A DNA stretch of 64,000 nt from Shigella phage KRT47: the sequence record MN781580, one strand, 5' to 3'. Below are positions 35,105 to 38,042 of this stretch, piece after piece; the stretch's first letter is position 1; every line of letters starts with the position of its first letter. A program made the translations under genes and the position numbers. The notes beneath the pieces were generated by a model. The model did no database searches and had not been told where the DNA came from. It saw nothing but the letters and a program-made list of their open reading frames with translations.

Positions 35105-35668
35105 TTATTTATCTAGTTTAGTTATTATAGCTTCTGCGGCAGCTTTTAGCTTAGATGCGGTGTTAATACGATTTTTAATTTCAGTATACGCATCGCCAAG
35201 AACATCAAGGCTATCAGAATAAACACTTACACTATTGCGTTCGCTATTTGAAATAGAACCTTTAGTTTTACGATCAAAATCGGTGTACACGTCTTGAAGA
35301 TCACGGGCTGCCTTCTTTGCATCATCCAATGCATCAAGAGCTTTATTCAAAGCATTAACGTATTTTTTAGTGTCGAACATATTCTTAGAAATTTTAACAG
35401 GTGCGCGTTCAGGAGTAGCTAACACAGATTTAGGAACCTGAGCGCCAGATGCCAATTTCTTAGAAATTTTGAAAAATGCTTTGTTGAATTTATTTTCTTG
35501 ACTCATTGTAAAAGAACTATTATCGATGTTGTACATTTCAATAGCTTTAGCTTTCCACTTAAGAAAATCGCCGCGGTCTTTTGGGTCCAAGTGGAAAAAT
35601 ACTTTAGTAAGATCTGCTTCAGATGGTAATTTTGCTGCTTCGGTTAAAAATTCGGCATAGGTTTTCAT
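35105..35668 (-). CDS. internal-protein-like gene with capsid-targeting sequence
   Basis: 187 aa; N-terminus MKTYAEFLTEAAK. Confidence 0.7.
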   Translation of the reverse strand: MKTYAEFLTEAAKLPSEADLTKVFFHLDPKDRGDFLKWKAKAIEMYNIDNSSFTMSQENKFNKAFFKISKKLASGAQVPKSVLATPERAPVKISKNMFDTKKYVNALNKALDALDDAKKAARDLQDVYTDFDRKTKGSISNSERNSVSVYSDSLDVLGDAYTEIKNRINTASKLKAAAEAIITKLDK

Positions 35669-35793: not shown

Positions 35794-36267
35794 TTATTTG
35801 ATTTGTTTAGCAGACCAAATGCGGTCTTTAATAATCTTTTGGATGTCTTCAACATACTCTAGGTCATGAGCATGTGGATTATCTTTGAAACTATAGGCAC
35901 GGGCTAACTTTTGGCCTTCGGTTTTGATTACTAAAAGCTCTTTAAGGATAGCTTCATATTTAGCGATAATTCCTTTAACAATATTTTTTTCTTGTGCAGC
36001 TTTATGATCTGCTTTAGGAGCAGGTTTACCCGAAGCCTTTGCAAAAGCAGCGCCAGTAGCAACTAAACTTTTCCAGGCCATACTAACTGCATTTCCCGTA
36101 AATCCTTCTGCTTTCATGTCGCGAGCAAACTGGAATCGTGATTCGTCAGAAGCATCTTTATAGGAATATTTACCCGCTGCAATGGCTGCTTTTGCGACAG
36201 CTTGAATTTCGGTGCTAGATGCTTCATTTAACACCGCTTCATTTAAAAATTGAGCATATGATTTCAT
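35794..36267 (-). CDS. internal-protein-like gene with capsid-targeting sequence
   Basis: 157 aa; N-terminus MKSYAQFLNEA. Confidence 0.7.
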   Translation of the reverse strand: MKSYAQFLNEAVLNEASSTEIQAVAKAAIAAGKYSYKDASDESRFQFARDMKAEGFTGNAVSMAWKSLVATGAAFAKASGKPAPKADHKAAQEKNIVKGIIAKYEAILKELLVIKTEGQKLARAYSFKDNPHAHDLEYVEDIQKIIKDRIWSAKQIK

Positions 36268-36306
36268 CTTATTTCCTGTTTTAATTCGTGATTTAATATA
36301 CTACTA

Positions 36307-36314
36307 TATTTATA
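36307..36314 (-). promoter_or_regulatory. late promoter (TATAAATA)
   Basis: minus strand TATAAATA about 40 nt upstream of the ATG of ORF 35794..36267. Confidence 0.5.
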
Positions 36315-36320
36315 CCAAAA

Positions 36321-36344
36321 AGCCCCAACCTTTCGGTCGGGGCT
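36321..36344 (-). terminator. intrinsic terminator (second copy of the 35763 hairpin)
   Basis: near-identical agccccaacctttcgg(t/c)(c/t)ggggct hairpin followed by a U-run. Confidence 0.6.
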
Positions 36345-36349
36345 AAGCC

Positions 36350-36655
36350 TTGCGGCAACCTTGTCGGGGTTCCACCTGCTAAGGCAAGTGTTTGTACGAA
36401 ACGCCGGGATTCGAACCCGGTTATTAAGCAGTTGACGCTACTTAATATTTTTAAAAGGCCATATCTCGACCATATCCGAACGTTCCGTCAAAAACGCTAC
36501 TCGGCTTACGGCAAAGATATTTCCTCGAATCGATAATTCGGTGCGCCGTTTCTGCTGTGATGTAAGAGGGCATCAACAAATCATAAAGATTTATTAACAC
36601 GATTCCTTACCCAGGGAACATCAGTCCGACGACTTACCGGTAGCGACCCGGTTTC
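36350..36655 (-). ncRNA. candidate structured small RNA(s) with tRNA-like T-arm
   Basis: about 300 nt without ORF between a CDS and a terminator; minus strand has CCGGG-TTCGAAT-CCCGG T-arm-like element plus a 7-bp pairing resembling an acceptor stem; no CCA, no clean cloverleaf. Confidence 0.35.
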
Positions 36656-37006
36656 TTAATATTCTTTTAAAGCATCAATCTGTTCACGACGTTTACGCCA
36701 TAAATCAATTGCTTCATACGCAGATTCAGCATTTCGAATTGGACGGCATTTATATAAAGACTTGTGATTTTGATATTGCGTAGATAACGGAATTTTATCT
36801 AAAAGGTCTTTACGTTCAAAGTATTCGTAACCATCTAAGCCAAATGAACGATTTTTGAGAAATTGCCAATGACCAAATTCGTTTTGAATATAAATATAAT
36901 CCGCGTGTTGATAAAGTAAATTAATTTCACGAAATGAGATATGTTTTTCATATTCATTGAAGTAAAATGTTAAATCATGAACTACTAAATAAACATTACC
37001 TTTCAT
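36656..37006 (-). CDS. hypothetical protein
   Basis: 116-aa ORF downstream of the tRNA cluster. Confidence 0.65.
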   Translation of the reverse strand: MKGNVYLVVHDLTFYFNEYEKHISFREINLLYQHADYIYIQNEFGHWQFLKNRSFGLDGYEYFERKDLLDKIPLSTQYQNHKSLYKCRPIRNAESAYEAIDLWRKRREQIDALKEY

Positions 37007-37024: not shown

Positions 37025-37100
37025 TGGTCGAGGCAGTAGGGATCGAACCTACGACCTAGGACTTAGAAGGTCCTTGCTCTTCCTTCTGAGCTATGCCCCG
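37025..37100 (-). tRNA. tRNA-Arg (anticodon TCT)
   Basis: 76-nt cloverleaf on minus strand; anticodon loop CTTCTAA; T-loop GGTTCGATCC; CCA encoded. Confidence 0.85.
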
Positions 37101-37104
37101 TAAT

Positions 37105-37180
37105 TGGGGTGACCGATGGGAGTCGAACCCATGACTACGAGAATCACAATCTCGAGTTCTACCAACTGAACTACGGCCAC
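37105..37180 (-). tRNA. tRNA-His (anticodon GTG)
   Basis: 76-nt cloverleaf; anticodon stem CGAGA/TCTCG with loop TTGTGAT; discriminator C; CCA encoded; no encoded G-1. Confidence 0.7.
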
Positions 37181-37294
37181 ATTAATACCTACTCCAACAA
37201 TCAAGATGTCTTCACACGAAATTAAGAGAAGAGTGATCAGTTCAACCCCGATAATCGCGTCAAGTAGATATTAATGTGACAGTTGTCACAAATT

Positions 37295-37369
37295 TGGCGG
37301 ACGTGATAGGATTCGAACCTATAACCAATCGCTTAACAGGCGATCGCTCTGCCATTGAGCTACACATCC
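37295..37369 (-). tRNA. tRNA-Asn (anticodon GTT)
   Basis: 75-nt cloverleaf; anticodon stem ATCGC/GCGAT with loop CTGTTAA; T-loop TTCGAAT; CCA encoded. Confidence 0.85.
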
Positions 37370-37373
37370 AAAT

Positions 37374-37460
37374 TGGTGGGGAGTGATGGAGTCGAACCAC
37401 CCGAGTCGCAATGACAATGAATTTACAGTCCACACCGCTACCTCTACGGGATAACTCCCC
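37374..37460 (-). tRNA. tRNA-Tyr (anticodon GTA), long variable arm
   Basis: 87-nt type II structure; acceptor GGGGAGT/ACTCCCC; anticodon loop CTGTAAA; CCA encoded. Confidence 0.8.
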
Positions 37461-37469
37461 AAATTAATT

Positions 37470-37544
37470 TGGTGGCCCTGGGTGGAATTGAACCACCATC
37501 TGGCGATTATGAGTCGCTTGCTTGAACCTTCCAGCTACAGGGCC
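37470..37544 (-). tRNA. tRNA-Ile2/Met (anticodon CAT)
   Basis: 75-nt cloverleaf; anticodon loop CTCATAA; abuts tRNA-Thr as in the known T4 Thr-Ile dimeric precursor. Confidence 0.8.
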
Positions 37545-37545
37545 T

Positions 37546-37621
37546 TGGTGCTGATTGACGGAATCGAACCGCCGACCTTCTCATTACAAGTGAGTTGCTC
37601 TACCTACTGAGCTAAATCAGC
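37546..37621 (-). tRNA. tRNA-Thr (anticodon TGT)
   Basis: 76-nt cloverleaf; anticodon loop CTTGTAA; CCA encoded. Confidence 0.85.
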
Positions 37622-37626
37622 AAAAT

Positions 37627-37716
37627 TGGCGGAGGCGATAGGATTTGAACCTATGAGTCGCCGGAGCGACTGCCGGTTTTCAAGACCGGTGCATTAAACC
37701 ACTCTGCCACGCCTCC
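37627..37716 (-). tRNA. tRNA-Ser (anticodon TGA), long variable arm
   Basis: 90-nt type II structure; anticodon stem CCGGT/ACCGG with loop CTTGAAA; variable-arm hairpin GTCGC/GCGAC. Confidence 0.85.
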
Positions 37717-37718
37717 AG

Positions 37719-37792
37719 TCTCCATACAAGGATTTGAACCTTGGACCTCCTGATCCCAAATCAGGCGCTCTACCAAACTGAGCTACACGGAG
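37719..37792 (-). tRNA. tRNA-Pro (anticodon TGG), CCA not encoded
   Basis: 74-nt cloverleaf; anticodon loop TTTGGGA; 3' end abuts tRNA-Ser (dimeric precursor arrangement). Confidence 0.8.
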
Positions 37793-37802
37793 TAAATTAA
37801 AT

Positions 37803-37876
<74 letters not shown>

Positions 37877-37881
37877 AAATT

Positions 37882-37968
37882 TGGTGCGAGAAGTGGGACT
37901 CGAACCCACAAGGAAATCATTCCGCAGCATTTTAAGTGCTGTGCCTTTACCAATTTGACCATTCTCGC
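37882..37968 (-). tRNA. tRNA-Leu (anticodon TAA), long variable arm
   Basis: 87-nt type II structure; anticodon stem CAGCA/TGCTG with loop CTTAAAA; CCA encoded. Confidence 0.85.
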
Positions 37969-37969
37969 G

Positions 37970-38042
37970 CTGGGAATAAAGGACTCGAACCTTTGCATCC
38001 TGGAATCAAAATCCAGTGCCTTACCAACTTGGCTAATTCCCA
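37970..38042 (-). tRNA. tRNA-Gln (anticodon TTG), CCA not encoded
   Basis: 73-nt cloverleaf starting with U1-A72 pair; anticodon stem CTGGA/TCCAG with loop TTTTGAT; abuts tRNA-Leu. Confidence 0.8.

Follow-up and report, generated by a model that had tools for sequence, protein, structure and literature searches.

Probable rnaD and rnaC orthologues, known from phage T4 as small stable RNAs, at the 3' end of the transfer RNA operon of Shigella phage KRT47

The window analysed here is the whole 64,000-nucleotide (nt) stretch of Shigella phage KRT47 (sequence record MN781580), a T4-like phage (Tequatrovirus); the locus is read from the minus strand, as are all RNA parts described below. Downstream of a cluster of transfer RNA (tRNA) genes, approximately 340 nt without a credible gene lie between an open reading frame (ORF) of 116 amino acids (aa) and a terminator-like hairpin. 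We conclude that this interval very probably consists of the orthologues of T4 rnaD (species 2 RNA) and rnaC (species 1 RNA), followed by a trailer and the terminator that closes the operon; processing and function of a tRNA-mimic type are what we infer for them. The feature is a rediscovery and was already known: papers on T4 have dealt with both RNAs since the 1970s. The initial annotation had described about 300 nt as a single non-coding region with a tRNA-like T-arm, bracketed by a coding sequence on one side and an intrinsic terminator on the other. The brackets stood (coding sequence ending at 36656, terminator at 36344-36321), and the region itself resolved into two RNAs and a 50-nt trailer, with only rnaC being tRNA-like. 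The locus is laid out as follows, from upstream to downstream:

37025-38042, minus strand: tRNA cluster of 11 genes (ARAGORN)
36656-37006, minus strand: 116-aa ORF, the upstream boundary, between tRNA-Arg and rnaD (ORF list)
36540-36659, minus strand: rnaD, 120 nt (homology to T4 71053-71171)
36534-36539, minus strand: spacer GAAUUA, 6 nt, between rnaD and rnaC (T4 annotation via alignment)
36395-36533, minus strand: rnaC, 139 nt (homology to T4 70908-71046)
36345-36394, minus strand: 3' trailer, 50 nt, from the end of rnaC to the terminator (sequence)
36316-36344, minus strand: intrinsic terminator AGCCCCGACC-GAAA-GGUUGGGGCU followed by UUUUU, stem at 36344-36321 (terminator scan)

Positions 36316-36659 of the minus strand aligned with T4 rnaD, rnaC, 3' trailer and terminator at a mean column identity of 93%, with long invariant runs. 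The T4 reference record lists both RNAs as misc_RNA features directly 3' of tRNA-Arg, rnaD as 'small, stable RNA; species 2 RNA' (71053-71171) and rnaC as 'species 1 RNA' (70908-71046). The initial annotation had pointed to the small stable RNAs made near the tRNA genes of T4 and had proposed a comparison with species 1 and 2; base-for-base alignment to rnaD and rnaC, at approximately 93% identity, settled this point. rnaC was homologous to its T4 counterpart over the full, near-identical 139 nt, with only a handful of substitutions (e.g. a G·U/A-U swap in hairpin H4), and shared with it the T-arm, the predicted fold and the position relative to trailer and terminator. It is the last RNA of the tRNA operon, placed between rnaD and the terminator as in T4 and phage G50. 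rnaD lies directly 5' of rnaC, with the same order and 6-nt spacer as in T4. Its outer parts (approximately 48 nt at the 5' end and 24 nt at the 3' end) were essentially invariant between the two phages, whereas substitutions and indels set the central hairpins apart. At its 3' end, rnaD has CACCG in KRT47 and CACCA in T4; its 5' end coincides with a stop codon in KRT47 and comes directly after the tRNA-Arg CCA in T4. By BLAST, the interval was present in about 805 of 50,697 phage records, nearly all of them T4-like enterobacterial phages (best match 99.5%), and rnaC and rnaD are annotated on the same sequence in the close relatives Aplg8 (96.7%) and RB68 (95.7%). Judged by sequence comparison, the identity of the two RNAs and their nature as structured RNAs appear near certain; an earlier proposal that a stable structured RNA is encoded here is borne out by the homology to T4 and by the folds.

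Across T4-like genomes, rnaC and rnaD are systematically mis-annotated or unannotated. In most deposits the region is blank or overlaid with spurious 'hypothetical protein' calls, and the deposit of Enterobacter phage SonariX labels the last 95 nt of its rnaC homologue (L005, 2054-2148) as 'tRNA-Met'.

We assessed the fold of rnaC by aligning 17 distinct homologues, which represent nine genera (Tequatrovirus, Mosigvirus, Dhakavirus, Kagamiyamavirus, Moonvirus, Karamvirus, Tegunavirus, Kanagawavirus and the Marfavirus-type Klebsiella phages). Folding, which had been suggested as a check, gave a minimum-energy structure of −50.1 kcal/mol (z = −4.1), and none of 200 shuffled sequences was as stable. 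RNAalifold agreed with the single-sequence fold on four elements, namely the long arm, H4, the T-arm and the stem joining the two ends; of the 36 pairs it predicted, 24 were changed on both sides. In our own structure model, which includes the loop-loop helix described below, 91.7% of the alignment cells were paired, compared with 79.3% in shuffles and 32–45% in slid controls; 18 pairs were changed on both sides, a value reached by none of 500 shuffles. The spacing between conserved motifs was near constant (61–62 and 37–39 nt). The model obtained is that rnaC is a four-way junction of an acceptor-like stem, a T-arm, a long bulged arm and a 10-base-pair (bp) hairpin, in which the acceptor-like stem would stack on the canonical T-arm. 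Its predicted parts are:

36526-36532, minus strand: 5' strand of the acceptor-like stem, CGAUUCG, pairing with 36403-36397 (minimum-energy fold, RNAalifold)
36461-36520, minus strand: long arm, made up of AGG/CCU, the 11-bp stem P2 (AUAUCUUUGCC / GGUCGAGAUAU), an internal loop and hairpin H2 (minimum-energy fold, RNAalifold)
36422-36447, minus strand: hairpin H4, whose 10-bp stem carries the 6-nt loop CGUCAA at 36437-36432 (fold and covariation)
36404-36420, minus strand: T-arm CCGGG-UUCGAAU-CCCGG, directly 5' of the acceptor 3' strand (sequence)
36397-36403, minus strand: 3' strand of the acceptor-like stem, CGUUUCG, then U-A-CAA at 36396-36392 (fold and alignment)

rnaC thus combines a tRNA-like T-arm with paired 5' and 3' ends. 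The T-arm hairpin had been placed exactly by the initial annotation. It was paired in 100% of cells across the homologues, with two pairs changed on both sides, and its sequence was unique in the window when up to two mismatches were allowed (0 of 100 shuffles matched). The segment 3' of it, reported earlier to pair over 7 positions with upstream sequence, did so in both the single-sequence fold and RNAalifold (CGUUUCG with CGAUUCG). Five of these positions are Watson-Crick pairs and the two central ones are U·U. The third pair is G-C in 11 and A-U in 6 of the 17 sequences, and phage TG1 turns both U·U positions into U-A and C-G. The absence of CCA noted before also held, the sequence after the stem being UACAAAC.

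Hairpin H2 (36504-36476) has a 5' bulge of 3–4 nt and the 6-nt loop UUGACG (36491-36486); all five pairs of its inner stem were changed on both sides, as were all eight counted pairs of H4. The H2 loop is the exact reverse complement of the H4 loop. This loop-loop helix was paired in 17 of 17 sequences and had undergone two independent compensatory changes, a C-G to U-A exchange in TG1 (UUGAUG/CAUCAA) and an A-U to G-C exchange in the Marfavirus-type phages (UUGGCG/CGCCAA). Since the bases beside the six would mismatch, the pairing is limited to the loops. The complementarity points to a kissing-loop contact.

rnaD was analysed in an alignment of 13 distinct homologues. Its ends were invariant (approximately 48 nt at the 5' side and 24 nt at the 3' side), and the centre occurred in at least three unrelated versions. 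It is without a T-arm and is not tRNA-like. Two of its hairpins stand out:

36636-36652, minus strand: 5' hairpin ACCGG-GUCGCUA-CCGGU (fold, alignment)
36570-36600, minus strand: hypervariable central hairpin (alignment; covarying pairs in helix 5)

The minimum-energy fold of rnaD in the window reached −35 kcal/mol (z = −2.2). The consensus structure is rod-like, with the 5' hairpin set apart; 94% of its cells were paired and eight pairs were changed on both sides; the closing pair of the 5' hairpin (8-24) varied between A-U, G-U and G-C. The covariation score was reached by 0 of 500 shuffles, and weaker count measures by 20 and 85. The versions of the centre (36570-36600 in the window; homologous loci L011, L082, L090 and L010) have the appearance of cassette replacement or diversifying selection.

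A covariance model built from the 17 rnaC homologues (R1) gave one real match in the window, with 164 bits and E = 3e-38. In Karamvirus, Moonvirus, Kagamiyamavirus and Tegunavirus, rnaC is flanked by tRNA genes with spacers of 2–4 nt, without rnaD and also without the trailer or a nearby terminator. The Dhakavirus phages MX01 (L009, approximately 2100-2130) and IME08 (L010, approximately 2110-2140) cleanly lack rnaC, with the junction ...GCACCGAA|CACTTGCC...; rnaD persists in them, together with the beginning of the trailer and a terminator, whereas Dhakavirus LHE83 (L026) carries rnaC. This contrast within one genus indicates that rnaC comes and goes as a discrete unit. Three scans of viral contigs with differing motif sets located rnaC only in enterobacterial Tevenvirinae and in Marfavirus-type Klebsiella phages, and 10 of 53 matches in a metagenome scan were real by R1, all of them T4-like or Marfavirus-like. 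The tRNA cluster of Aeromonas phage 44RR2.8t contained no rnaC homologue in a covariance-model search with filters off. Among bacterial and archaeal genomes (one per species, 185,579 genomes), strict rnaC motifs gave 45 matches, none of which R1 confirmed; no cellular homologue was thus found, with the limit that the strict pattern may miss distant relatives.

In the Marfavirus-type Klebsiella phages, an additional G+C-rich element of approximately 65 nt (AAGGGGUGG...CCCACUCC) with pairable ends lies between tRNA-Met and rnaC. From its sequence, it is possibly another small structured RNA. It was seen in three loci:

L022, approximately 575-640; L023, approximately 535-600; and L077, minus strand, directly upstream of the rnaC match at 2149-2291 (sequence)

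The distribution bears on the question whether the interval acts only in cis, i.e. as a 3' untranslated region, processing platform or terminator region without a product acting in trans. We consider this improbable. The interval does lie between a coding sequence and the operon terminator. Its trailer contains a small hairpin (CACUUGC-CUUA-GCAGGUG), and the first approximately 36 nt (the hairpin through CCCCGACAAGGUU) are kept in T4 and, together with a related terminator, in the Dhakavirus phages without rnaC, in which the segment immediately before the terminator diverges. A 2025 study also called a single-nucleotide polymorphism (SNP) in this region 'regulatory' (PMC12685909). However, in T4 both RNAs, of about 120 nt (rnaD) and 140 nt (rnaC), accumulate as discrete stable species and are annotated in that way; for rnaC this was seen on a Northern blot with an RNAC probe (PMC9697503). 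Moreover, rnaC persists among tRNA genes in other genera in which rnaD, trailer and nearby terminator are all missing, and its covarying fold exceeds the needs of a processing signal.

The initial annotation had also raised a tRNA-derived pseudogene or an interrupted tRNA, of which a T-arm and part of an acceptor stem would survive in otherwise neutral spacer. Its observation that a canonical anticodon arm is missing was correct. ARAGORN called 11 tRNAs, all outside the interval, and no tRNA or tmRNA (transfer-messenger RNA) in 36300-36700. The suggested Rfam scan yielded nothing above chance in the interval: at gathering score the whole window gave only 10 tRNA matches, none of them in the interval, and a permissive scan of 36200-36800 gave nothing better than E = 0.5, all far below threshold. 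Neither rnaC nor rnaD has a matching family in Rfam 15. A canonical tRNA was rejected on the same calls and because rnaC has neither a D-arm nor a 7-nt anticodon loop, its hairpin loops being 6 nt.

What speaks for a decayed tRNA is the location in or beside tRNA clusters, the 'tRNA-Met' label on the homologous 95 nt of SonariX, and a weak alignment of 36396-36488 to the selenocysteine tRNA (tRNA-Sec) cloverleaf. That alignment scored 17.3 bits (E = 1.3), far under the Rfam threshold of 47, and required ACGGAACG as the 5' strand of its acceptor, a segment which forms the 3' strand of H2 in the covarying fold. The alternative partnership of ACGGAACG with CGUUUCGU showed no pair changed on both sides, and 500 of 500 shuffles reached its value. 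The tRNA-Sec-like reading was rejected since its pairing does not covary. The parts of rnaC outside the tRNA-like portion are, in contrast to what a remnant would leave, conserved in length (the 61–62 and 37–39 nt gaps) and covary in structure over nine genera, which disfavours a neutral remnant. A pseudogene or interrupted tRNA is therefore very improbable.

A tmRNA-like, possibly two-piece, ribosome-rescue RNA would be built from the acceptor/T-arm domain without anticodon and an adjacent RNA ending in ...CACC(A/G). The rnaC module without an anticodon arm and the A encoded directly after T4 rnaD (giving ...CACCA) fit such an RNA, yet the window reads CACCG, ARAGORN called no tmRNA, the Rfam permuted tmRNA model matched the T-loop alone (10 bits, E = 9.7), the alanine identity pair G3·U70 is missing, with A-U or G-C as the third pair of the acceptor-like stem, and there is neither a tag ORF nor tmRNA-type pseudoknots; we regard this reading as extremely improbable. 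The same holds for a protein-coding gene: a 49-aa ORF with a GTG start (36451-36600, minus strand) is mechanically present in the ORF list, contrary to the earlier statement that there is no ORF of any length, yet it is not conserved, as the T4 sequence reads GCG where the GTG start stands here and is put out of frame by indels, it crosses the rnaD/rnaC border with the 6-nt spacer, and substitutions among homologues track RNA pairing and not codon positions.

The boundaries of the interval were compared with those in relatives. The terminator at 36344-36321 consists of 10 pairs (7 G-C) with a 4-nt loop and a T-run, the make-up of a Rho-independent terminator in the scan used, and the record of phage G50 annotates a terminator at the matching site. 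Immediately 3' of it, a T4 late-promoter-like sequence, TATAAATA, was seen at 36314-36307 (minus strand). The 116-aa ORF (36656-37006) matched phrog_3355 with E = 1e-52. The records of G50 and RB69 list its counterpart as a hypothetical protein, and it is not present in T4, where, according to the T4 record, rnaD follows tRNA-Arg directly with no ORF between; here and in close relatives the ORF separates the two.

Further observations were made on the neighbouring genes. The ORFs at 35794-36267 and 35105-35668 (both minus strand) are paralogues, both assigned to phrog_2280. Nearly identical terminators, AGCCCC(GA/AG)CCGAAAGGTTGGGGCTTTTT, close the rnaC operon (36344-36321) and the paralogue at 35794-36267 (35786-35763). 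Within the tRNA cluster, an 87-nt tRNA-Tyr with a long variable arm (37374-37460, minus strand) was called by ARAGORN and was absent from the 10 Rfam tRNA matches at gathering score. A spacer of 114 nt (37181-37294, minus strand) with the palindrome TGTGACAACTGTCACA splits the cluster between tRNA-Asn and tRNA-His; at the equivalent border between tRNA subclusters, T4 has the homing-endonuclease gene segB.

Compared with a canonical tRNA (RF00005), rnaC shares the end-to-end 7-bp stem, the adjacent 5-bp T-stem, the UUCGAAU loop and the location in a cluster with tRNA-like spacers. It is unlike one in its length of 139 nt, in the two U·U mismatches and in having no D-arm and no CCA. An acceptor/T-arm on a non-decoding body is also found in the tRNA-like domain of tmRNA, in plant-virus tRNA-like structures and in the bacterial YrlA RNAs. 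The likeness to these is one of principle alone, with no sequence or covariance match, and two arms with complementary loops do not make up the body of any of them. ROOL and GOLLD are likewise structured RNAs of phages, often near tRNA genes, although several times larger, and the window matched no non-tRNA Rfam family at gathering score. Recent cryo-electron microscopy reportedly found ROOL and GOLLD to assemble into multimers; rnaC could conceivably multimerise by way of its two loops.

The biological roles of RNAC and RNAD were described as unknown in a 2010 review (PMC3014915). In 2022, a transcriptome study of T4 placed the two among the late RNAs, again with unknown function, and backed this classification with a Northern blot for which an RNAC probe was made (PMC9697503); the function was given as unknown once more in 2025 (PMC12685909). 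The 2025 study mapped to the rnaD region one convergent SNP, shared by three independent lines of a T4-like phage adapting to E. coli ECOR34, with virulence increasing from 0.17 to 0.98 (PMC12685909). In this phage, BW1, the SNP is at position 164264, and rnaC-rnaD occupies 164080-164336 on the reverse strand (PMC12685909). By coordinate arithmetic alone, this SNP appears to lie approximately 73 nt from the 5' end of rnaD, i.e. in the hypervariable central hairpin. We found no description of the acceptor-like stem of rnaC, its loop complementarity or the hypervariable centre of rnaD in searchable papers; the original work of the 1970s and 1980s was beyond the scope of this search, so novelty is not claimed.

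For the orthologues of rnaD and rnaC, we propose that both would be co-transcribed with the tRNA operon, of which they form the tail ahead of the terminator, and released by host tRNA-processing enzymes. The occurrence of rnaC among tRNA genes, its tRNA-like spacers and its behaviour as a module led us to infer such processing. RNase P would make the 5' cut of rnaC, while the encoded ACAA would be removed by trimming from the 3' side, possibly with CCA added in its place. According to a review on RNase P, some T4 tRNA precursors are without an encoded CCA (tRNA-Ser ends in UAA) and efficient processing by RNase P favours the CCA form; literature on tRNA nucleotidyltransferase in the biosynthesis of T4 tRNAs is among its references (PMC11143913). 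Since rnaC has no anticodon arm, it cannot decode. Its most likely role would be that of a tRNA mimic that binds a protein recognising the acceptor/T-arm half, or of an RNA whose molecules are locked or linked through the complementary loops. We put forward a mimic or decoy function of this kind tentatively, as somewhat short of probable. The hypervariable centre of rnaD, together with the published SNP, suggests that rnaD may take part in host-specific interactions. The more specific combination, in which rnaC would be a decoy locked or linked by the 6-bp loop pairing and would form a host-range or anti-defence RNA module together with rnaD, seems unlikely.

Several points weigh against this account of ends, processing and function. 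The ends of rnaD and rnaC given here are predicted ones, carried over from the annotation of T4. The TAA stop codon of the 116-aa ORF (36658-36656) falls within the T4-defined 5' end of rnaD, so this end or its processing may differ from T4. The two U·U mismatches in the acceptor-like stem, kept in 16 of the 17 sequences, would make rnaC an atypical substrate for RNase P and the CCA-adding enzyme, and CCA is encoded only in the Marfavirus-type homologues (...CGUUCCG-U-CCA), with ...G-U-A-CAA in all others. The basal stem of rnaD is invariant, and covariation therefore argues neither for nor against it. The loop pairing fits the sequence equally as a contact within one rnaC or between copies.

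If true, the combined reading, with rnaC as a decoy and both RNAs as a host-range or anti-defence module, would answer the half-century-old question of the T4 species 1 and 2 RNAs in terms of an arms race between phage and host around tRNA. The acceptor stem formed by rnaC's own ends, its complementary loops with their compensated changes and the hypervariable centre of rnaD provide experimental handles on the function of both RNAs.

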